DNA of 64,000 nt, taken from positions 31,415-95,414 of the forward strand of contig JAJZQO010000001.1 in assembly GCA_021847575.1 (NCBI GenBank), given 5' to 3'. Positions 20,672-34,144 of this stretch are shown one piece after another. The notes below the pieces were generated by a model that was not told where the DNA came from, searched no databases, and saw nothing but the letters and a program-made list of their open reading frames with translations. The DNA comes from Bacillota bacterium. GTDB lineage: Bacteria; Bacillota; Sulfobacillia; JAJZYS01; JAJYTV01. A program made the translations under genes and the position numbers. Each line of letters begins with the position of its first letter. The stretch's first letter is position 1.

Positions 20672-20749
20672 CGCCAGGGCGAAGCCCCGCGGGCGGCGGC
20701 GAAAGCGCCCAGGGCCAACGGCCCGAAAACATATGGGAAGGTGAGATGG

Positions 20750-21208
20750 ATGGACCAGAACGAACGGGCGATCGCTAAGATCCGGACGCATCACGCGGCC
20801 TTGCTCCAGGGTCTTCGCGAGCGCTGCGAAGGGCTGCTCGGGGCGGCCGCGGCAGGCGGCGCGACGCAGGAGCCGCAAGGCGAGCTGCTCATGTACCTGA
20901 ACGGCGAGATCGTGCCGCACGCCGAGGCGGAGGAGGCCACGATCTACAAGCGCGGCCTTGAGGTGCCGGAGCTTGTCCTGCTGATCCAGGCGATGGTCGC
21001 CGAGCACGAACGCCTCCGCTCCCTGACAGGTGCCCTCAGGGCGGCCAGGCCGGCTGTGTCCGCGGCGGCGCTCGGGCTCGCCATCACGGAGCTTTTCGCG
21101 GTGCACGCCGACAAGGAGAACGACCTCCTGCTGCCAAGGCTGGCGCGCGAACCTGGCGTGAGCCTCCACGAGCTTCTGGGGGACATGCACGCCAAGCTGG
21201 AAGGCTGA
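20750..21208 (+). CDS. Hemerythrin-like (HHE cation-binding) domain protein.
   Basis: H...HxxxE-type spacing: THHAALL, IVPHAEAEE, AEHERL, AVHADKEND. AAGGTGAG RBS 5 nt upstream of the ATG. 152 aa. Confidence 0.5.
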   Translation: MDQNERAIAKIRTHHAALLQGLRERCEGLLGAAAAGGATQEPQGELLMYLNGEIVPHAEAEEATIYKRGLEVPELVLLIQAMVAEHERLRSLTGALRAARPAVSAAALGLAITELFAVHADKENDLLLPRLAREPGVSLHELLGDMHAKLEG

Positions 21209-21317
21209 CGGTCTCGGCGAGGGCTTGGGATCTGCCCCGCGGAATCGTGCATCAGAGAGCCGGCGTGCCGGGCCTCGCCTGCGCGCAGTCACCGTCTTTT
21301 TGGGGAGGGGATTCGCC

Positions 21318-21776
21318 GTGGAAGCGAGGATCGATTACCGTACTGCGGCGCCTTTGGCGCTCAAAGCCATGCTGGGACTCGAGGAGTACGTGCGGGGAAG
21401 CGAGCTCGAGCCGGCGCTGCTTGAGCTCGTGCGCACGCGCGCGTCACAGCTGAACCGCTGCGGCTACTGCCTCGACATGCACACGAAGGACGCCCGCGCA
21501 GGTGGCGAGACGGAGCAGCGCCTCTATGCCCTGAGCGCCTGGCGCGAGACGCCTTTCTACTCGCCGCGCGAGCGTGCGGCGCTGGCCTGGACAGAGGCGC
21601 TCACGCTGATCTCGCAGGATCCCGTGTCGGACGAACTCTACGCCGAGGTACGCGCCGAGTTCGGCGAGAAGGAGCTTGTCGATCTCACGATGGCCATCGT
21701 CGCGATCAACGGTTGGAACCGCCTGGCCGTCGGCATGCGCACCGTGCCGGGCAGCTACCGGCGCAGGGATGGCTAG
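21318..21776 (+). CDS. Carboxymuconolactone decarboxylase family protein (AhpD-like core).
   Basis: ...RASQLNRCGYCLDMHTKDA... (the CxxC..H motif of the AhpD/CMD family). GTG start after GGGGAGGGG. 152 aa. Confidence 0.65.
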   Translation: MEARIDYRTAAPLALKAMLGLEEYVRGSELEPALLELVRTRASQLNRCGYCLDMHTKDARAGGETEQRLYALSAWRETPFYSPRERAALAWTEALTLISQDPVSDELYAEVRAEFGEKELVDLTMAIVAINGWNRLAVGMRTVPGSYRRRDG

Positions 21777-21789
21777 GGGGCGGCGGAGC

Positions 21790-22230
21790 ATGTCCGAGGA
21801 TCTCGACTTCCGCATACAGGTGCGCTGGTCCGGCAGCGGGCGAAGCGGCCTCGGCACCATCTCCTCGGGCGGGCAGAGCATCACCTACTCGGCCCCGGCC
21901 GCCATGGGCGGACGGGGCACAGGCACAAGTCCCGAGGAACTCCTGATCGCCGCGGTCGGCTCATGCTACAGCGGTACCCTGGCGCGCATCCTGCAACAGC
22001 GCGGCCTGCCTGTGGACCGGCTCGACCTTGGCGCAAGCGGCGTTGTCACTGGCTACCCGGGCGACACCCGCTTCGCGCGCATCGTTGTCGAGCCATCCAT
22101 CGAGGGCGGCGACAACTCGCGCGTGCAGGAGTACCAGGAAGCCGCCGAGGCTGCCTGCAGGCGCTGCTTCATCGGCGGAACGCTCAAGGAGACAATCGAG
22201 TACACCGTAGGCGAGGTCCGCGTTTCCTGA
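21790..22230 (+). CDS. OsmC/Ohr-family peroxiredoxin-like protein.
   Basis: MSEDLDFRIQVRWSG...ELLIAAVGSCYSGTLA...RRCFIGGTLKE, the two-cysteine OsmC pattern. 146 aa. The ATG is chosen downstream of the upstream gene. Confidence 0.65.
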   Translation: MSEDLDFRIQVRWSGSGRSGLGTISSGGQSITYSAPAAMGGRGTGTSPEELLIAAVGSCYSGTLARILQQRGLPVDRLDLGASGVVTGYPGDTRFARIVVEPSIEGGDNSRVQEYQEAAEAACRRCFIGGTLKETIEYTVGEVRVS

Positions 22231-22266: not shown

Positions 22267-23361
22267 TCAGGCATGGGGCAGCCGTATCCACCGGACGCCG
22301 GCCGGCGTGACGTAGGTCAGGAGGTCGCCGTAGAGCTCAGGCATGAAGCCCGGGATCCGATAGAGCTGGTCGGTGCGCAGGTCGAGCAGCTCGGACCGCT
22401 GTGCCCACCAGCTGATGTAGCCGTTGCCGATGCTCGGGTTCGAGGGATAGTCTCCCGGCGCGGTGATTCTGATCATCGTGCGGTCCTCGCGCAGATAGAG
22501 TCCCTCGTCGACGCCGAAGTCCTCGGTGAAGGCGAGGCCACCAGGTCCCCGCACCACCGACGTGAGCACCCCGGAAGTGCGCCAGAGCGTGTGCGGTTTC
22601 CCGCCGGTCAGCGGGACCGACACGATCTCGCCCTGCACAGGGTCGGCGGGATCGGCCGGCTTGATTGCGAGGTAGGCGTGGCTCTTGCCCGTGTCGAGCG
22701 CGATCACGTCGAGCGAGGAACGATCGCTCGCCTTGCGGTACAGGTCCCGGCACGCGTAAGTCCGGAGGTCGCAGGCGACGACACTCGTCAGATCGTTGCC
22801 GCCCTCGGTGCGCGTATTCAGGAAGATCAACTCGTGCCCGACGAAGTGGAACGAGGTATCGATGCTGCCACGGTCTTCTGGCGGCAGGCGGAGCAACCTC
22901 GCCGGACCTCCCGAAAGCGGCTCAAGTTGCACGGGAGCGTCGCGCGGACCGGACTCCGGCCCCACCTGGAAGGCGACGCCGTCCAGACCCACCGCCGCCG
23001 AGGTGGCGATGTCGCGATGCTTACCTGGAGAGATCGAAACGATCAGGCCTTCACTGCCCGTCGCCGGCTCGCCGAAGTAGAGCCCGTCCGCCGGACCATT
23101 CCGGCTTGGCAGGACGCTCAGGAGCACGCCCTTGCCAGGCAGGTATCCCGCAGCCGCCTGGCCGACGCCCGCAAAGAGCCCCTTGGGCCAGGCGGAGGGC
23201 AGGTTTTGCGGCCTGAGCGCGCGGTAGAGATTGATGACGTCCGCGGGCGGCGCAGGTCCTGCGGAGGGCAGAAAGGTCGGTTCGGGATAGGTTTTGCAGC
23301 CGCTGAGCAGGAGGCCGAGCATGGCGGTCAGCGCGAGCCGCGGCAGGATGCCCCGCGTCAT
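22267..23361 (-). CDS. Lipoprotein of unknown function (lipobox LLSGC); likely beta-rich extracytoplasmic protein.
   Basis: MTRGILPRLALTAMLGLLLSGC signal peptide plus lipobox. GGGAGGTG RBS 8 nt upstream of the ATG at 23361; the track start further upstream was rejected. 365 aa. Confidence 0.55.
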   Translation of the reverse strand: MTRGILPRLALTAMLGLLLSGCKTYPEPTFLPSAGPAPPADVINLYRALRPQNLPSAWPKGLFAGVGQAAAGYLPGKGVLLSVLPSRNGPADGLYFGEPATGSEGLIVSISPGKHRDIATSAAVGLDGVAFQVGPESGPRDAPVQLEPLSGGPARLLRLPPEDRGSIDTSFHFVGHELIFLNTRTEGGNDLTSVVACDLRTYACRDLYRKASDRSSLDVIALDTGKSHAYLAIKPADPADPVQGEIVSVPLTGGKPHTLWRTSGVLTSVVRGPGGLAFTEDFGVDEGLYLREDRTMIRITAPGDYPSNPSIGNGYISWWAQRSELLDLRTDQLYRIPGFMPELYGDLLTYVTPAGVRWIRLPHA

Positions 23362-23929
23362 GGCGATGGCACCTCCCTTGCAACCGCACTTTAGCATCTC
23401 GCATGGCCATCGCGAGGGAACTGGATCACACCGAAGAAGGTCATACGGACATCGGTTTGACTGCAAGATCGGAAGCGACCTTGCCGAGGTTGCAACGCAG
23501 GCAGCGTGTCGCCGAGACGTTGCAGTGCTGTCCATGCCGCACTTCCGCCGTGCAGACGGAAGCGGGAGGACCCGCCGGAGACTACCGGCGCATGATGGCG
23601 CGGATCAAGGCCTTCAGCCATTCCGGACCGCGGCGCGGCGCGGCATCGACATCGTCGGGAGCCACCAGCTCCTGCTTTTCGCGCTGCCTCTGTTCCAGCA
23701 GGAGCTCTTCCGCCTGCAGCGTGTCGAATTCACGGGACCTGTCGAAGCCGGTCATCCGGATCACCTCGTCCCGGACGGCGCCACGCCGCCCCTCTTTGGC
23801 CAGAGGATAGATGGAGCCGCCAGGAGTTGCAAGTTTCCCGGCGCCGGGGAGCGTGTGGCCGCAAGGTGGTCGTATCCTGGTGCCGCAGGACATCTCGTGC
23901 TACGTTCATTGCGGGAAGGGGTGCAGTCG

Positions 23930-24628
23930 TTGGTCCATCCGCAGGCTCCCGCGGCATCGGCCGCCCTGGCCGAGGTGACGCCGTTTGCCGAACTGCCCGG
24001 GGCGACGCTGGCCCGGCTTGCCGATATCACGAGCATCCGGCGCTATCGCAAGGACATGTACATATTCGGCGAGGGCGAGCCGGCGGAGATGCTCTGCTTC
24101 GTGCACCGCGGCGTCGTGAAGGTGTTCAAGACCACGTCGGACGGCCAGGAGCAGACGCTGCACCTCTTGCAGCAGAACGAACTCTTCGCCGTGACGGGGT
24201 TTGTCGTCGGGGGCATCTACCCGGGCACGGCGCAGACGCTCGAGGACAGCTGGGTCGGCTGCATCCGCAACCAGGCCCTGCGCGGGCTGGCGCAGAGCGA
24301 TGTCTCGCTCGCATGGTCCCTGCTCGCCTTTTTCGCACGCCGCCTCACCGGCACCTCGCAGCAGGTGCTGGACCTCGGCACGCGCGACACGGCGGGACGA
24401 CTTGCGGCCGCGCTCTTGCAACTCGCCGGGGTCCGGGACCGCAGCATGGGCAAGCACGTCAGGGTGGGGCTGCAGGTGACGCATCGGGAACTCGCGCAGC
24501 TCATAGGCGCGTCGCGCGAGACGGTGACGCGCCTCCTGGGCGAGTTCCGCCAGGAGGGCAGCATCTTCGTCGATGCGGACGGCCATCTCGAGATCACGCC
24601 CGAACTTCTGCAGAGCCGGCTCGATTAG
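23930..24628 (+). CDS. Crp/Fnr-family transcriptional regulator (cNMP-binding domain plus C-terminal HTH).
   Basis: ...YRKDMYIFGEGEPAEMLCFVHRGVVKV... (effector domain) and ...THRELAQLIGASRETVTRLLGEF... (HTH). TTG at 23930 gives the 232 aa typical of the family. Confidence 0.7.
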   Translation: MVHPQAPAASAALAEVTPFAELPGATLARLADITSIRRYRKDMYIFGEGEPAEMLCFVHRGVVKVFKTTSDGQEQTLHLLQQNELFAVTGFVVGGIYPGTAQTLEDSWVGCIRNQALRGLAQSDVSLAWSLLAFFARRLTGTSQQVLDLGTRDTAGRLAAALLQLAGVRDRSMGKHVRVGLQVTHRELAQLIGASRETVTRLLGEFRQEGSIFVDADGHLEITPELLQSRLD

Positions 24629-24634
24629 CGGCTT

Positions 24635-24946
24635 TCAGCCCATGCCGAGCTCCTCGCGCGCGTAATCGTTCATCATGCGCGGATCCCAGGGCGGGGAGAA
24701 GACCAGTTGCACCCGCACGTCGCTGACCCCGAGCGGCAGCATCGCGCGCTCGATCGAGCGTCCGATGATCGCGTGCAGGGGGCAGCCGGGCGTCGTCAAA
24801 GTCATTGTGACGTCGACGACGCCGTCGTCCGTCACGTCGAGGCTGTAGACGAGGCCGAGCGAGACGATGTCGACGCCGAGCTCGGGGTCCATGACTTCGC
24901 GCAGGACGTCGACCACCTCGGCCTTGGTCGGTGCCGGGCCGGTCAT
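24635..24946 (-). CDS. DUF59 / MIP18-family Fe-S cluster assembly protein (SufT/PaaD-like).
   Basis: ...VVDVLREVMDPELGVDIVSLGLVY...TMTLTTPGCPL... 103 aa. Confidence 0.7.
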   Translation of the reverse strand: MTGPAPTKAEVVDVLREVMDPELGVDIVSLGLVYSLDVTDDGVVDVTMTLTTPGCPLHAIIGRSIERAMLPLGVSDVRVQLVFSPPWDPRMMNDYAREELGMG

Positions 24947-25179
24947 GAGCCCGGGGTCCGCGTGAAGCGCACGCGGTAGTCGCCGCCGCCGAGCGACTCG
25001 GTCGTGTGGCTGAAGCCCTTCGCGCCGAGAACACCGAAAAGAGGCACCGGCTCGAACGGCGCCAACAGGACGAGCTCCTCGTCCACCTCGAGTTCCGCCA
25101 CAGCCTGCATGATATCGTCAAAGGGTTCGCCACCGGCCCGGATCGTCGCGCGGACGTCGAGCAGGCGTTCCTTCGCCAT
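24943..25179 (-). CDS. DUF2249 domain protein.
   Basis: MAKERLLDVRATIRAGGEPFDDIMQAVAELEVDEELVLLAPFEPVPLFGVLGAKGF... GGAGGTG RBS 5 nt upstream. The stop overlaps the DUF59 start (ATGA). Confidence 0.55.
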   Translation of the reverse strand: MAKERLLDVRATIRAGGEPFDDIMQAVAELEVDEELVLLAPFEPVPLFGVLGAKGFSHTTESLGGGDYRVRFTRTPGS

Positions 25180-25342
25180 TTCGCCACCTCCGCTCGGAGT
25201 CTTGCGAATCTGCCCTGAGACTAGTCGGCCGACGGTGCGTGGATTGTGTCCTGCGACACCAAGACGCGGCTCGTCCGTCACAGCACGCCAGGGCCGGGCA
25301 CGCTACGCTCGTGGCGATCGAGTTCGCGAAGGAGGGTATAGC

Positions 25343-25579
25343 ATGCCTGGTGACCAGACCCTTGACGTGCGCCAGATGGCTCCCGCGCAACGCCATGGCA
25401 CGATTTTCAGCATGTTCGATCAGTTGAAGCCGGGTCAAGGCTTCGAGCTTGTCAACGACCACGACCCCAAGCCTCTCTACTACCAGTTCTCTGCCGAGCA
25501 TGCCGGACAGTTCGAGTGGTCGTATCTCGAGCAGGGTCCGGAAGTCTGGCGGGTGCGCATCGGCCGCACGCAGAACTAG
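25343..25579 (+). CDS. DUF2249 domain protein, second copy, divergent from the first.
   Basis: MPGDQTLDVRQMAPAQRHGTIFSMFDQLKPGQGFELVNDHDPKPLYYQF..., the same architecture as 24943-25179. GGAGGG RBS 6 nt upstream. Confidence 0.55.
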   Translation: MPGDQTLDVRQMAPAQRHGTIFSMFDQLKPGQGFELVNDHDPKPLYYQFSAEHAGQFEWSYLEQGPEVWRVRIGRTQN

Positions 25580-25582
25580 ACT

Positions 25583-26842
25583 ATGCTGCCGATGGCGCCG
25601 GGCGGCGCCGATGTGCGACTGCCGCTCGCGCATCTTGCCTTCGGCCTTCTGGCGAGCGTGGTGCTGGCGGCGTGCCTGCTCGAGCCCGGCTGGGCCACAT
25701 ACGGTCTGCCGGGCTCGACGTCGACCGTCGTGCTGACGCATCTTTTCACGCTCGGCTGGGTGACGGCCACCACGATGGGGGCGATGCTGATGATCGTGCC
25801 GGTGGCCGGCGTGGCCAAAGTGCCGGCGGGACGGTTTGCGCTGCTCGTCCCAGGCGCGACTTTGCCCGGCATCGTGCTGATGCTCCTCGGTTTCGGCCTG
25901 GGCCTGAATTCGCTCCTGGCCGTGGGCGGCAGCCTTGTCGTGATCGGCGTGCTGGCCTTCTACCTGATCCTCTGGCGCACGGTGGCGGGGGTGACCGTAC
26001 CGTCCCCGACCCCCGCCGGAGCGCTCATCGCATCCTCCTTTCTCGTGCTTACCGTCCTGCTCGGCCTGACCGAGGCCCTGAACCTGAGCTACGGCTTCTG
26101 GCAGTTCCCCTTCATGCGTTTCCTGGCGCTCCACGCAGCCCTTGGCGGCTTCGGCTGGGTCGCGTTCGCCATACTCGCTGTAAGCTACAAGCTGGTCGCG
26201 ATGTTCACCCTGTCGCACGAGCACGAACGCTATCCCAAGGCCGTCTTCGCGCTTTGGGGCCTGGCTGTGCTCTGGGCGGGCGCCATGGCGATCTGGGGCA
26301 CCGACGCCCTCGCGGCGCTGGCCGCGCTGCCGGCGCTCGCCGCCTACGCCCTCTTTATCGCGGACATGCGCCTGCTGCTTTCGGCCAGGCAGCGACCGAT
26401 CGAGCCGGGCATCCAGCAGGCGATCGTGAGCTGGATCGTGCTCGGCATCCTTCTGGTTGCCATTCCGCTGCAGCTTCTCGGCGTCTTCCAGGTCTCGATC
26501 TTCGCCTTCGCCTGGCTTTTCGTCTTCGGCTTTGCCGGGGCGAACCTCTGGGGCTTCCTGTTCAAGATAGCGCCGTTTCTCATCTGGTTTCACAGCTACG
26601 CCGAACTCGCCCCGGGCAGGCGGGCGCCGAAGCTGACCGAAATGGTCGGTCCCAGGTACCTGCGTGCCGGTAGCTGGCTGCTTTACCCTGCGATCCCGCT
26701 CGGCGCGATCGGCCTCGCGGCAGGGTATCCGCTCGCCGTTCAGGCGGCAGACCTGCTCGCGCTCCTCGCCGCTCTCGCCTTCGCCGCGTCGGGCTGGCGC
26801 CTTACGGTCCACTATCTCGGCCGGGCGCAGGCGGGCCGGTGA
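25583..26842 (+). CDS. Polytopic membrane protein of about 12 TM and unknown family. NnrS-like (NO-response heme-copper membrane protein) is suggested by context only.
   Basis: 419 aa, hydrophobic throughout. Conserved-looking His/Trp positions: THLFTLGW, LHAALGGFGW, SHEHERYPK, WFHSY. Begins 4 nt after the DUF2249 stop. Confidence 0.5.
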   Translation: MLPMAPGGADVRLPLAHLAFGLLASVVLAACLLEPGWATYGLPGSTSTVVLTHLFTLGWVTATTMGAMLMIVPVAGVAKVPAGRFALLVPGATLPGIVLMLLGFGLGLNSLLAVGGSLVVIGVLAFYLILWRTVAGVTVPSPTPAGALIASSFLVLTVLLGLTEALNLSYGFWQFPFMRFLALHAALGGFGWVAFAILAVSYKLVAMFTLSHEHERYPKAVFALWGLAVLWAGAMAIWGTDALAALAALPALAAYALFIADMRLLLSARQRPIEPGIQQAIVSWIVLGILLVAIPLQLLGVFQVSIFAFAWLFVFGFAGANLWGFLFKIAPFLIWFHSYAELAPGRRAPKLTEMVGPRYLRAGSWLLYPAIPLGAIGLAAGYPLAVQAADLLALLAALAFAASGWRLTVHYLGRAQAGR

Positions 26843-28041
26843 ACAGCTCGCCCCTGATCGTCACGCCGCGCACCGCGCCGCCGCCGCACGTCGTGCTGCG
26901 CCCGATCGCGGCAGGCCTGGGGGCGCTGATTCTCGCGGGGAGCTGGGTGGCATGGCTTGGCCTGCCGACGGGCACTCCGCTCCTCTCGCTCATCCACCTG
27001 GGCTTTGTCGCAGGTCTCCTCACCTTGGCGAGCGCCGCCGCGACCCAGCTCGGAGCGGCGACCACAGGCCAGTCCCATCCGCGGCCGGGGCTGCTCGGCG
27101 GCTTCGCACTCGGGGTTCCGGCCGGGGGCGCGCTGCTCAGCGCGGGCTTCGCATTTGGCGCGCCAGTCCTTCTGGCCATAGGCGGGGCCTTGGCCTTCAC
27201 GGGCGTTGCCTTTGTCTTCGGCCACGCGCTGCGCCGGATCGGACGAAGCGGGTCCCTGCGCCCGCTTCACGTCGGCCTCCTGCTCGGCCTCGTCGGCTTC
27301 CTGGCTGCGGCCGCCATGGGGTTTGCAATGGCGCTGGGCCTCACCCTCGGACACCCGTCGCTCCTCGGGCTCCTGCCCTGGCACCTCGCACTCGCCCTCG
27401 GCGCCGGCTTCGGTGCCTTGCTCGCGGGCGTCTCGTGGCAGCTTCTGCCGATGTTCGGGCGTGCCCGCCAGGTGCAGGGTCCACTCGGCTATTTGCCGGC
27501 TGGGGCGTTCGCCGCGGCGGCCTTGCTCGGCGCCATCGCCTGGGGGCGGATCGGCATTGGGGCTGCGTGGCTCCTGGCGATTGCGGCGGCCATACACCTT
27601 GCGATCACCGTGTGGTCCCTGGCGCGCGGCGCAGGCGCAAAACTGCCGCCCTTCACAGGGCTCGCCCATCTCGCATCCGCCGCACTGCTCTGCCTGGCCA
27701 CGCTGCTCTTCGTCAGGGGTCTCTACGGCGACGCGCTGCTGGCCGCGTTCGGCGGCTACACCATCGCGATCCTGGGCTATCTCGAGCGCATCCTGCCCTT
27801 CATCGTGTTCGAGGCCCACCTCAACCGCCGCACCGGGCGGACGAAGGTACCGAAGCTGCAGGACATCCTGCCCGCTAAAGGCCGCCATGTCCTGCTTGCC
27901 GCATACCTCGCGGCACTCGTGCTGGCTTTGGCCTCCAGCTGGGGGGTCCGTCTCTTCGGCGTCGCCCTTGCTCTCATGGCCCTGCGCCTCCTTCTTGCCC
28001 TGCGGAACCTACCGCCAGGCACTTCAGGATCCGCAGAATGA
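26839..28041 (+). CDS. Paralogue of the preceding polytopic membrane protein.
   Basis: Start overlaps the upstream stop (GTGA). Aligned segments: HLALALGAGFGALLAGVSWQLLPMF versus HAALGGFGWVAFAILAVSYKLVAMF, and ILPFIVFEAHLNRRTGRTKVPKL versus IAPFLIWFHSYAELAPGRRAPKL. Confidence 0.5.
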   Translation: MNSSPLIVTPRTAPPPHVVLRPIAAGLGALILAGSWVAWLGLPTGTPLLSLIHLGFVAGLLTLASAAATQLGAATTGQSHPRPGLLGGFALGVPAGGALLSAGFAFGAPVLLAIGGALAFTGVAFVFGHALRRIGRSGSLRPLHVGLLLGLVGFLAAAAMGFAMALGLTLGHPSLLGLLPWHLALALGAGFGALLAGVSWQLLPMFGRARQVQGPLGYLPAGAFAAAALLGAIAWGRIGIGAAWLLAIAAAIHLAITVWSLARGAGAKLPPFTGLAHLASAALLCLATLLFVRGLYGDALLAAFGGYTIAILGYLERILPFIVFEAHLNRRTGRTKVPKLQDILPAKGRHVLLAAYLAALVLALASSWGVRLFGVALALMALRLLLALRNLPPGTSGSAE

Positions 28042-28254
28042 AGACCGCAATATTTACGGTTTGGCAAGGCAAAGAGGGATAGGTTACCTGTGATGGTGCC
28101 CCATGGGGACTGCTTTAGGTTCTTCGGCTCTTCATGATAAAAGGAACTTTCCGACCGAGGGCGAACTCTCGCATCTGTATTTTCTACTTCCTGTCTCGTT
28201 ATCGGAATGAGGGGCCATCGCAGTTGCGGGGGGGCGAACTGCTTCTTTCCCCAC

Positions 28255-29976
28255 ATGGACGCCGACATTTGGTTGGAGATTCGGGAAGACATGACCCTTG
28301 CCGCCGTGTTTCAGCCCATCGTCTCGCTTGCGCATGGGCGCGTCGCGGCGTATGAAGCCTTGAGCAGGCCTACGCTCGGGCGGGAGCAACCGCTTGCGAT
28401 CCTCGATGTCGTGGAGTCGGCGAGGGCAGCCGGACCGCACGCCGAGGCCGAGCTCGATGGCCTCGCCATTACCGCGATCGCCTCAGCCGCCCGCCACCTG
28501 CCGACGGGTGCCATGCTGTTCGTCAACGTGGCGCCGGTCACCGTGCTCGAACAGCCGGAGCTTCTGCAACCCCTCGCGGAGCTGCCTTGTACCGTGGTGC
28601 TCGAGGTGACGGAACGCTCGACCGTCCCGGACACCCGCTGGCACGTGTTCACGCACTCCCTCGACATACTGCGCTGGCGCGGGTTCCTTGTTGCCATGGA
28701 CGACTGTGGTGCGGGCTATTCCGGACTCAATCGGCTGGTGGCGCTCAGGCCGGATTTCGCCAAGGTGGACATGGAGCTCGTGCGCGGTGTCGATCGTGAC
28801 AGCGCCAAGGCGCAACTGGTGGCAGCCCTGGTGTCGTTCTCGCGGCGTGCGGGCATCACGGTGATCGCGGAAGGCGTGGAGACCCGGGCGGAGCTCGAAA
28901 CCCTGAGCGAACTCGGCGTCGACTATGTGCAAGGTTTCCTGCTCGCAAGGCCGGAAAGTGGCTTCGCCGAGACAGAGGTCATGGTGGGACGACAGGGCAA
29001 GCGAAGAAACGCGAGCGATGCAGGCGCCGCGCTCGGCGCCGCCATGCGTCTCGCGCGCATGGCCGTGCGCGGGCTGGGCGACGCGCCGGGTCTTTACGAG
29101 GCGATCGTCCATGCCGCGCGCGACGCCACCGGGGCTGACGCGGCAGTGCTCCGTAGGCGCGTGGGGCAGACGCTTGAGCCTGTGGCCACTTCGGGTGCGC
29201 CACTGCGGCCGCGCGCGATCCCCCTTTCGTCCGGCGACCCGCTGGCCGCCGCGTTCGGCGCGGAGCGCAGCGCGACGCGCCAGACGCACCCGCCGGACGG
29301 CGCCGACAGTGCCTACGGCTCCGCATTCAGCGCTCCTGTCGTCGTGGACGGGGTTGCCTGGGGAGTGCTCACGGTCGGGTTTCAGGAGGAGAACCGCATC
29401 CGCGGCGAGCTGGCCGACCTCGCGACGGGCCTTGCCGATCAGGCAGGCCTCATCCTGGCGGCCAATCAGGGGGGACTCCTGCCGCTGCGGACCGACGCCA
29501 TCGACACGCTTCGCTATGCGGTGCAGCACCCCGGAGACATCTCGGACTTCCTTTCGCGTATCATCCGCGACGTGGAACGTTCGACAGGCTCCCACGACTG
29601 CTGGATCGGCATCGCCCGCGACGGGCGGTTCGATATCATCAGCGGTGACGGCGACGTGGCGGAGACCGAGCTCGCCCAGTGGCTGGATCCCGAGAGCGAG
29701 ATGGGGCGCATGCCGCCTGGCGTTTCGCTGCGCGAGGCCAGACGCGTGATCGTCGACGACATCCGGCTCGAGCCGTCCCTCGCGTCGCAGCTTGAGGACC
29801 TCCTGCAGCAGGCCATCATCTCGGCGGCGGCGATTCCGATGATCAGCCACGAGCGCGTCGTCGGCATTCTTAAGGTCTATCACAGTACAGTGGCGGCCTT
29901 CACCGAGGACCAGCTGACCTTTCTGGAAGAAGTCGCGTCGCTGCTGGCCGACTACCTCGGCCGTATGGCGGCATAG
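28255..29976 (+). CDS. EAL-domain c-di-GMP phosphodiesterase with C-terminal tandem GAF domains.
   Basis: EAL hallmarks AYEALSRP...VLEVTERS...MDDCGAGYSGLNRL...VIAEGVETRAELETLSELGVDYVQGFLLARP, then about 330 aa of GAF-like sequence. Start ATG is 28255 or 28291. Confidence 0.75.
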   Translation: MDADIWLEIREDMTLAAVFQPIVSLAHGRVAAYEALSRPTLGREQPLAILDVVESARAAGPHAEAELDGLAITAIASAARHLPTGAMLFVNVAPVTVLEQPELLQPLAELPCTVVLEVTERSTVPDTRWHVFTHSLDILRWRGFLVAMDDCGAGYSGLNRLVALRPDFAKVDMELVRGVDRDSAKAQLVAALVSFSRRAGITVIAEGVETRAELETLSELGVDYVQGFLLARPESGFAETEVMVGRQGKRRNASDAGAALGAAMRLARMAVRGLGDAPGLYEAIVHAARDATGADAAVLRRRVGQTLEPVATSGAPLRPRAIPLSSGDPLAAAFGAERSATRQTHPPDGADSAYGSAFSAPVVVDGVAWGVLTVGFQEENRIRGELADLATGLADQAGLILAANQGGLLPLRTDAIDTLRYAVQHPGDISDFLSRIIRDVERSTGSHDCWIGIARDGRFDIISGDGDVAETELAQWLDPESEMGRMPPGVSLREARRVIVDDIRLEPSLASQLEDLLQQAIISAAAIPMISHERVVGILKVYHSTVAAFTEDQLTFLEEVASLLADYLGRMAA

Positions 29977-30151
29977 GGCAAACAGTCCAGGTCTTTCAGG
30001 GTCCTGTCCGAGGCGAGTCGGGCAGGACCCCGTTTTTGCGCTTTACCGACAGAATGCGACAAACAGCCCATGACATATGGACCTTGTCGCCTCTACCTTA
30101 CGGGATATAGGGCATAGTCGCCATTGCCCGGAGCGGTTGTGGAGGTCAAGT

Positions 30152-34144
<3,993 letters not shown>

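Follow-up and report, generated by a model that had tools for sequence, protein, structure and literature searches.

A conserved DUF2249–DUF59 gene module with predicted haem-binding homologues of the haem-copper oxidase catalytic subunit in a Bacillota bacterium

Introduction

HCOH proteins are said to be homologues of the haem-copper oxidases (HCOs) built from either one or three four-helix units; they were reportedly described by Pei, Li, Kinch and Grishin in Protein Science in 2014. Most of the three-unit families, NnrS among them, reportedly have two conserved histidines and one predicted haem, and are found in the contexts of denitrification or nitric oxide (NO) detoxification. Here we analyse a six-gene block in a 64,000-nucleotide stretch of DNA from a Bacillota bacterium (contig JAJZQO010000001.1, positions 31,415 to 95,414; the whole stretch is called the window below), in which genes for two 12-helix membrane proteins, named Mem1 and Mem2 here, stand in tandem beside genes for two DUF2249 proteins, a DUF59 protein and a Crp/Fnr-family regulator. 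We argue that both membrane proteins are related to the catalytic subunit of the HCOs and of the nitric-oxide reductases (NORs), and that with DUF2249 and DUF59 they belong to a module found in many bacterial phyla.

The Mem1 family resembles the three-unit HCOH proteins in having 12 helices arranged as three homologous four-helix units, remote homology to subunit I of the HCOs and NORs, with helices 9-12 the closest, a pair of conserved histidines as the predicted ligands of one haem, and a genomic association with DUF2249; genes for denitrification or NO detoxification are near it at a subset of loci. An original prediction for this block, made from its sequence before the present analysis, had called it a previously undescribed system, which is too strong: the two-histidine HCOH kind was described computationally in 2014, and a later paper (PMC11218638) cites that description for an association of DUF2249 with the HCO superfamily. 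Beyond the HCOH description, the neighbour counts (74, 55 and 52 out of 80 loci), the DUF2249 fusions, the candidate operator and the coupled Mem2 come from the present analysis. We found no experimental work on the membrane family in the literature; the block belongs to a computationally described, experimentally untouched kind, to which a lineage-specific coupled paralogue is added.

NnrS (PF05940) is a haem- and copper-containing, NO-responsive membrane protein, and NnrS of Vibrio cholerae has been reported to protect iron-dependent metabolism from NO. A NorR regulon that includes nnrS has been described (PMC3345576). As a 12-helix membrane protein of ~400 amino acids (aa) that is not a reductase and that is found in NO-responsive regulons, NnrS is the likeliest functional analogue; however, the Mem1 family is separate in sequence, has no match to the NnrS family of Pfam, and has DUF2249 and DUF59 as its partners here. 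With CcoN (3mk7_A) and NorB (4xyd_A, 3o0r_B) the Mem proteins share (L/I)VP motifs at helix ends, and their invariant histidines align with H60 and H347 of CcoN, but they lack the high-spin haem ligand, the three CuB/FeB ligands and a cytochrome c partner subunit, and are 50-100 residues shorter. RIC (YtfE, ScdA) combines DUF1858 with a hemerythrin-like di-iron domain and repairs iron centres. A DUF1858–DUF2249 fusion at one locus of our collection (L003) and the hemerythrin genes that accompany the module (17 out of 300 neighbouring open reading frames, ORFs) recall RIC, which in contrast is soluble and has no membrane haem component, and the six-gene block has no hemerythrin. In Thermus thermophilus, the DUF2249 proteins DrpA and DrpB modulate the nitrate respiration that depends on the Crp-family regulator DnrT (PMC6282519), and in Haloferax DUF2249 genes are induced during denitrification (PMC11218638). 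DrpA and DrpB offer a likeness as small DUF2249 proteins under Crp-family control that act back on the expression of denitrification genes, but the Thermus drp operon has neither an HCO-like membrane gene nor a DUF59 gene (PMC6282519), and the nitrate sensing proposed there is unproven.

Results

The six-gene block

The block was delineated by ORF listing, translation, and scans against Pfam and NCBIfam, and contains the following features (window positions):

23897-24628, plus strand: Crp/Fnr-family regulator, 243 aa, GTG start according to public gene calls; cNMP_binding (E 6.6e-19), HTH_Crp_2 (E 1.1e-14), Crp (E 2.7e-10)
24635-24946, minus strand: DUF59/FeS_assembly_P protein, SufT/MIP18-like, 103 aa; Pfam PF01883 (E 6e-21); TTPGCP cysteine motif
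24943-25179, minus strand: DUF2249 protein, 'EP' subtype, 78 aa; Pfam PF10006 (E 2.4e-16, 59.7 bits)
25180-25342, no strand: divergent promoter region, 163 bp, with a Shine-Dalgarno sequence at each end
25246-25259, no strand: candidate Crp-family operator, GTGTC-CTGC-GACAC within a TGTG-N8-CACA palindrome
25343-25579, plus strand: DUF2249 protein, 'His' subtype, first gene of the plus-strand operon, 78 aa; Pfam PF10006 (E 7.5e-33, 112.6 bits)
25583-26842, plus strand: Mem1, 12-helix protein, very probably an HCOH-type homologue of the HCO/NOR catalytic subunit, 419 aa; no Pfam match
26839-28041, plus strand: Mem2, fast-evolving paralogue of Mem1, 400 aa; no Pfam match

The minus-strand DUF2249 gene (TGA) is coupled to the DUF59 gene (ATG) by an ATGA overlap (TCAT at 24943-24946 on the plus strand), a GTGA overlap joins the end of the Mem1 gene to the start of the Mem2 gene, and the Mem1 gene starts 3 nt past the stop of the plus-strand DUF2249 gene. 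All six genes of the tight block described in the original prediction, and every junction between them, were found in the sequence. Its gene order and both overlaps stand; the gap between DUF2249 and Mem1 is 3 nt and not 4 nt, the shared intergenic region, which had been given as 160 bp, is present with a length of 163 bp, and the other corrections are one-base shifts. For the Crp/Fnr gene, the 23930 of the original prediction is an in-frame alternative start, and the 243-aa gene call is found at loci L006-L009.

Homology of Mem1 and Mem2 to the HCO catalytic subunit

A BLASTP comparison aligns Mem1 with Mem2 over the N-terminal 100 aa only (E 0.001), so that profiles were required to settle their paralogy. 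Alignment of 21 Mem1 relatives with nine Mem2 relatives by hhalign covers 352 columns with a probability of 99.3% (E 8.6e-21), and bears out the paralogy that had been read from the sequence, including both of the segment pairs quoted for it. AlphaFold2 models of Mem1 (predicted local confidence, pLDDT, 91.1; predicted template-modelling score, pTM, 0.90) and Mem2 (pLDDT 91.8, pTM 0.92) agree with the 12 transmembrane helices originally predicted for each protein. The proteins have the 12-helix core with three-fold pseudosymmetry that is typical of HCOs, and the three internal four-helix units are mutually homologous (~96% probability each). The top Foldseek matches of the Mem2 model are NorB (3o0r_B) and cbb3 CcoN (probability 1.00, TM-score 0.58-0.64); matches to MATE and MFS proteins have TM-scores of 0.14-0.2 and a probability of ~0.1.

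Direct searches with Mem1 and Mem2 returned no family in full Pfam and NCBIfam scans and nothing among PDB sequences. Neither protein matches the Pfam COX1 model (PF00115, gathering threshold 34.8 bits) at E ≤ 1, and a member of the family, P0015, has no match in the PDB by phmmer. Among distant members, COX1 scores above its gathering threshold in P0015 (49.3 bits) and P0039 (56 bits), and it is matched by 10 out of the 21 aligned Mem1 relatives (best E 4.4e-13). A profile of these 21 relatives has cbb3 CcoN as its sole match in the PDB (E ~3e-5). The first unit of the family best matches HCO helices 9-11 (positions 307-399 out of 436 in the COX1 profile), and the sequence register is offset by one four-helix unit, such that helices 1-4 of the family correspond to HCO helices 9-12. 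A positive-inside loop (R269-x-R271) puts the N-terminus in the cytoplasm, as in HCOs. The COX1 matches of the relatives, the CcoN match of the profile and the AlphaFold2 and Foldseek results therefore give both proteins the fold of an HCO catalytic subunit, and it is very likely that Mem1 and Mem2 are homologues of the catalytic subunit of the HCOs and NORs. The two proteins could not be placed in a named family in the original prediction; their distant relatives and their fold now place them among the HCO homologues. A clear match to a well-characterized transporter family, which was held in advance to speak against a redox system, did not appear in the Pfam and NCBIfam scans.

Two invariant histidines and a predicted haem site

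The catalytic subunits of HCOs and NORs have six conserved histidines: one in helix 2 (low-spin haem), one in helix 6 and an HH pair in helix 7 (CuB/FeB), and an H-x-H motif in helix 10 (high-spin and low-spin haem). In the Mem1 family, H53 (helix 2) and H184 (helix 6; Mem1 numbering) are invariant in the 21 aligned sequences, in the 30 sequences that include the Mem2 clade, and in 147 representatives taken from clusters at 50% identity, where they are the only universally conserved polar residues. The next most conserved histidine, H337, is present in 60% of the 147 representatives, no cysteine is conserved, and no conserved candidate copper ligands were found in the family beyond the two histidines. 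HMMER alignment pairs H53 with H347 of CcoN and H184 with H60 of CcoN, which we take to be the residues that axially ligate the low-spin haem b in 3mk7. The second helix of each unit ends in an (L/I)VP-type motif, and the distances to the helix-end proline are -20 for H53 and -22 for H184, as compared with -20 for CcoN H347 (helix 10) and -22 for CcoN H60 (helix 2).

Positions equivalent to those of the high-spin haem and CuB ligands are occupied by L51, F309 and W311, and the HH motif is absent; four of the six canonical histidine ligands (one for the high-spin haem and three for CuB/FeB) are missing in all 147 representatives. No electron-entry subunit (CoxB/CuA, CcoO/CcoP or NorC) is encoded by the six genes of the block or in its immediate flanks. 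Judging from the sequence register, each chain probably carries one bis-His six-coordinate low-spin haem b, with H53 and H184 as the predicted ligands. The conservation of histidine ligands across homologues, which had been proposed as a check, comes down to these two residues, and the metal-cofactor-containing membrane system that was suggested for the block is plausible in the form of a haem protein.

A DUF2249–HCOH–DUF59 module in many phyla

An exhaustive search by profile returned 1,776 cluster representatives (clusters at 50% identity) at E ≤ 1e-30 and 3,419 at E ≤ 1e-10; with each GTDB species represented by one genome, at least 495 loci were recovered. There is no Pfam or NCBIfam model for the Mem1 family, and its members are named 'hypothetical protein' or 'cbb3-type cytochrome oxidase subunit 1' (Joint Genome Institute, JGI) in their source databases. 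Gene neighbours were counted at the best 80 of the at least 495 species-level loci, by calling ORFs and searching them with hidden Markov models (HMMs) built iteratively from the window proteins. These 80 loci come from Ktedonobacterales and other Chloroflexota, Campylobacterales, Gemmatimonadota, Verrucomicrobiota, Beta-, Gamma- and Deltaproteobacteria, Bacteroidota, Planctomycetota and Bacillota, and gave the following counts:

DUF2249 gene within 300 bp of a full-length membrane gene: 74 of 80 loci
DUF59 gene within 300 bp of a full-length membrane gene: 55 of 80 loci
DUF2249 and DUF59 genes both within 300 bp: 52 of 80 loci
Crp/Fnr gene within 2.5 kb of the membrane gene: 30 of 80 loci
Two or more full-length membrane genes: 12 of 80 loci

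The usual order, on one strand, is DUF2249, membrane protein, DUF59, and precomputed Pfam annotations around three distant homologues again give DUF2249 and DUF59 as partners. Two independent members of the family (P0091 and P0161) are natural fusions, in which an N-terminal DUF2249 domain of the 'EP' subtype is joined by a linker of ~30 residues to a 12-helix HCO-like protein; these fusions argue for direct cooperation of the two parts on the cytoplasmic side. Each of the two is a singleton cluster from one contig, and they are ~45% identical to each other by eye. The six-gene arrangement of the window is also found in a Thermaerobacter-like metagenome-assembled genome (L001; Mem1 61% identical), where it is flanked by CorA and spore-germination genes, and at a further locus (L010, 77% identical). 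As the block is kept in L001 between unrelated flanks, the six genes are the unit. We are highly confident that DUF2249, the HCOH protein and DUF59 form a conserved functional module. The neighbourhood is no one-off, which the original prediction had held would speak against it: it occurs in many phyla, and the complete six-gene block in two further genomes.

The genes for cyclic di-GMP signalling and a PAS kinase downstream of the block were considered as part of the system and rejected, because they are absent beside the orthologous block in L001; the cyclic di-GMP block to which the prediction had linked the cluster adjoins it here but is not part of the module. In the window, these downstream genes (28207-34144, plus strand) encode an EAL and double-GAF protein (589 aa), followed by a hybrid histidine kinase of 1,355 aa that contains four PAS, two receiver and one Hpt domain.

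Four-helix proteins of 151-167 aa, homologous to one unit of the family, are encoded directly after the membrane-protein and DUF59 genes in Bacteroidota and Ignavibacteria (L025:7536-7991, L031:2304-2759, L022:2577-3113, L045:2179-2634 and L078:8160-8663). They have an H-x-H motif (SAHTHIILVG...GVALWFFPR) with histidines at -22 and -20 from the proline, like HCO helix 10. They resemble the one-unit HCOH proteins reported by Pei et al., and possibly form trimers.

Divergence of Mem2

Mem2 keeps both histidines in the same register (H53 at -20 and H182 at -22), and substitutes residues that are >90% conserved elsewhere (G58, G66, P73, V74, G191, W192, R269, R271, D274 and W335). Only nine close homologues were found in searches with Mem2. 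Its identity to the L001 orthologue is 36%, as against the 61% of Mem1, a divergence about twice as fast. The fast-evolving, translationally coupled Mem2 is specific to the Thermaerobacter-like lineage, and we infer that it is a subfunctionalized partner subunit.

A family member of 862 aa (P0038) carries two full 12-helix units in one chain, with both histidines in each. It was considered as a Mem1–Mem2 fusion and rejected: its second half is not specifically Mem2-like, and it is a case of independent duplication and fusion. P0038 therefore shows only that two units can join. In Sulfuricella and other Betaproteobacteria (L024, L032, L069 and L073), two pairs of DUF2249 and membrane-protein genes are found on opposite strands, 2-3 kb apart; the module has thus been duplicated there independently of the tandem pair in the window.

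DUF2249 and DUF59 proteins

Both DUF2249 proteins of the window exceed the gathering score of PF10006 (29.5 bits), and the two are barely alike (BLASTP E 0.07). The minus-strand copy is of the 'EP' subtype (GGEPF...FEPVPLF), which has no conserved histidine; elsewhere, this subtype immediately precedes the membrane protein or is fused to it. On the plus strand, the copy is of the 'His' subtype (RH...NDHDPKPLYYQ). By sequence, no solved structural relative was found for the DUF2249 protein. The DUF59 protein scores 74.9 bits in Pfam (cut-off 23.5), and stays under the NCBIfam equivalog cut-offs of SUF_assoc (96.8 versus 143.4 bits) and SufT (86.9 versus 202.6 bits); by these profile scores, it is a member of DUF59 that is not assignable to SufT proper.

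The regulator and a candidate operator

The Crp/Fnr-family regulator has a CRP-like recognition helix (RETVTR), and the FNR-type N-terminal cysteine cluster is absent from its translation. It stays below every NCBIfam equivalog cut-off, the best being CRP (84 versus 266 bits). The Crp/Fnr regulator of the original prediction has turned out to be a frequent partner of the membrane gene, as counted above, and a palindrome is conserved in the divergent promoter region of three orthologous loci. This palindrome, GTGTC-CTGC-GACAC, is the sole perfect 5-N4-5 palindrome in the 163-bp spacer, with its centre ~73 bp from the ATG on the minus strand and ~90 bp from that on the plus strand. Its position is kept in L010 (GTGTCCTGGGACAC) and in L001 (TGTGCGCTAGCGCACA), where the flanks have diverged, and it is the best conserved block of the spacer apart from the ribosome-binding sites. 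The CRP-like helix and the missing FNR-type cysteine cluster fit a TGTGA-type site, and we regard TGTG-N8-CACA as a candidate operator for the Crp-family regulator.

Another conserved block, CGTCACAGC, is found at 25276-25285, ~20 bp downstream of the palindrome (CATCACCGC in L001; aligned in L010; columns 104-113 of the spacer alignment), and a conserved CTAG is found upstream of the palindrome in the same spacer. They may represent promoter elements or another half-site. A scan with the sigma-70 consensus found no promoter in the divergent region, and a terminator scan found no more terminators than expected by chance.

Genomic context

We assigned Pfam families to 300 further ORFs in the neighbourhood of the module. 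The following counts were obtained:

Hemerythrin: 14 + 3 ORFs, the commonest extra neighbour
Cytochrome c: 7 ORFs
Cupin: 4 + 3 ORFs
Genuine COX1: 4 ORFs
NIR_SIR: 3 ORFs
NirS: 2 ORFs
NosL: 2 ORFs
FeoB: 2 ORFs

For example, a NirK–cytochrome c gene and YgbA_NO are neighbours of P0016, a NirS gene is found in L037, and L033 has a NorR-like activator (GAF-sigma54). The link of the module to NO, O2 and iron chemistry is real for a subset of loci, where NO, O2 and denitrification genes lie near it, and this gives genomic support to the O2/NO link that had been suggested for the block. In the window, hemerythrin, AhpD-like and OsmC genes are found 2-5 kb upstream of the block, the hemerythrin gene at 4 kb.

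This upstream region (20741-22230, plus strand) holds three consecutive stress-type genes: 20741-21208 encodes a hemerythrin HHE protein, 21225-21776 a CMD/AhpD-like protein that bears a CxxC motif, and 21676-22230 an OsmC-like peroxiredoxin. The block itself is flanked by a 422-aa protein without a Pfam match on one side and by the EAL-GAF protein on the other. The 422-aa ORF (22267-23535, minus strand; 364 aa in public gene calls) separates the stress genes from the Crp gene. Between 26001 and 28000, AT skew (-0.35) and GC skew (-0.08) are strongly negative as compared with the rest of the window; this segment coincides with the coding regions of Mem1 and Mem2, and the skew is probably due to their T-rich hydrophobic codons.

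Discussion

We propose that the module consists of DUF2249, a 12-helix HCO-homologous membrane protein and DUF59, and that in the window the membrane gene has been duplicated and a CRP-type regulator stands alongside. Mem1 and Mem2 are very probably non-catalytic relatives of the HCO and NOR catalytic subunit; they have kept the fold and exactly the two low-spin haem histidines, and have lost all ligands of the high-spin haem and of CuB. Close to the outer membrane face, each chain would hold a single six-coordinate haem b and would have no binuclear centre, and neither protein would reduce O2 or NO as an oxidase or NOR does. The two may act as a heterodimer, on whose cytoplasmic face the soluble DUF2249 and DUF59 proteins would dock, and the Crp-family regulator would bind TGTG-N8-CACA between the divergent operons and switch both on. 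The system might then serve as an accessory to nitrosative or oxygen stress defence, giving NnrS-like protection of iron-sulphur (Fe-S) and di-iron centres under NO or rebuilding them, with the haem protein as the membrane-bound component that interacts with NO or redox partners. This role is the weakest step; by analogy with NnrS it is possible, and we put it forward tentatively. The explanation as a whole, from the module and its haem to the heterodimer, the Crp control and the role in NO and iron chemistry, is the best that we can offer, and we hold it with moderate confidence.

Several observations weigh against this explanation. DUF59 points to the assembly of metal centres, and the membrane protein is predicted to bind haem and not an Fe-S cluster, so that the logic of the three parts is incomplete. 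The predicted haem binding is itself a matter of sequence register, and a lone haem near the outer face cannot by itself move electrons across the membrane to cytoplasmic partners. The idea of a heterodimer comes from translational coupling, co-conservation within one clade and the unrelated fusion in P0038 (whose second half, as noted, is not specifically Mem2-like). In the NCBIfam scan, the regulator could not be assigned to an NO-sensing subclass (Dnr, NnrR, NssR or HcpR). Over the whole window, the degenerate form of the operator shows no enrichment (four found, 2.05 expected), and the evidence for the operator is therefore its positional conservation. Denitrification genes are found near the module in a minority of loci, and the surroundings of the block in this window lack nir, nor and nos genes.

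The main rival reading makes the same haem the heart of a membrane sensor, in a module that would signal and not protect or repair; NO or O2 would bind at the haem and DUF2249 would relay the signal to the Crp-family regulator, as proposed for DrpA and DrpB acting on DnrS and DnrT. DrpA and DrpB do change expression from DnrT-dependent promoters (PMC6282519), and such a relay would fit the Crp/Fnr genes near 30 out of 80 loci, the NorR-like regulator in L033, the conserved candidate operator in the divergent promoter, and the fusions P0091 and P0161, which place DUF2249 at the cytoplasmic N-terminus of the membrane protein. But no Crp gene is nearby at the other 50 loci, the Thermus drp locus has no HCO-like gene (PMC6282519), a haem with six-coordinate bis-His ligation senses gases less well than a five-coordinate haem, and DUF59, found at 55 loci, belongs to a family of Fe-S and di-iron assembly proteins (with SufT and PaaD model matches) that has no known signalling role; we consider a sensor unlikely. 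That the HCO scaffold works without a cofactor, as a transporter or a channel whose substrate might be a metal ion, nitrite or NO, or as an amino-acid exporter, is a good deal less probable still. The polytopic 12-helix architecture would suit it, FTR1 and FeoB genes occur near a few loci, and one Mem2 homologue carries the JGI label 'branched-subunit amino acid transport protein AzlD'; however, the Pfam and NCBIfam scans gave no transporter family, the strong structural matches include no transporter fold (MATE and MFS proteins being the poor matches given above), and the universally conserved polar residues are just the predicted haem-ligand histidines.

NnrS is itself said to be a two-histidine HCO homologue, and membership of the NnrS family proper, a candidate since the original prediction, would account for a 12-helix membrane protein linked to NO. 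NnrS was matched faintly by two out of 21 relatives (E ~1.5), but neither Mem1 nor Mem2 matches PF05940 at E ≤ 1 or any NCBIfam model, and the relatives match COX1 and not NnrS. The null result with PF05940 led us to reject NnrS membership, which we now hold to be very improbable. Least credible of all is a genuine, divergent terminal oxidase or NOR, even though some members carry the JGI label 'cbb3-type cytochrome oxidase subunit 1' or score above the Pfam COX1 threshold, and the fold is that of CcoN and NorB: four of the six histidine ligands are missing in 147 out of 147 representatives, and the block has no gene for CcoO/CcoP, NorC or a CuA subunit. A true oxidase or NOR was rejected on the missing catalytic-centre ligands and partner subunit.

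A wider picture goes beyond the non-catalytic haem module that we favour, and we regard it as doubtful. In it, a distinct, phylum-spanning DUF2249–HCOH–DUF59 system would both sense NO or O2 at the membrane and protect or re-metallate iron centres, with two small adaptors in the cytoplasm assisting a haem-only descendant of the oxidase/NOR scaffold, as a third class beside NnrS and RIC/YtfE; the Thermaerobacter-like lineage would have turned it into an obligate heterodimer of 24 helices with the fast-evolving Mem2 as a degenerate regulatory or structural subunit, and the 151-aa H-x-H proteins would represent the ancestral single unit of the oxidases.

The label 'cbb3-type cytochrome oxidase subunit 1' on members of this family can inflate the counts of aerobic respiration or NO reduction in metagenome surveys. 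DUF2249 and DUF59 gain a concrete and testable partner, a membrane protein that keeps only the low-spin haem site, and the family is a natural experiment on the reuse of the oxidase scaffold without its catalytic centre. If a role in NO and iron protection is true, the module would add a common component to the bacterial toolkit against nitrosative stress.

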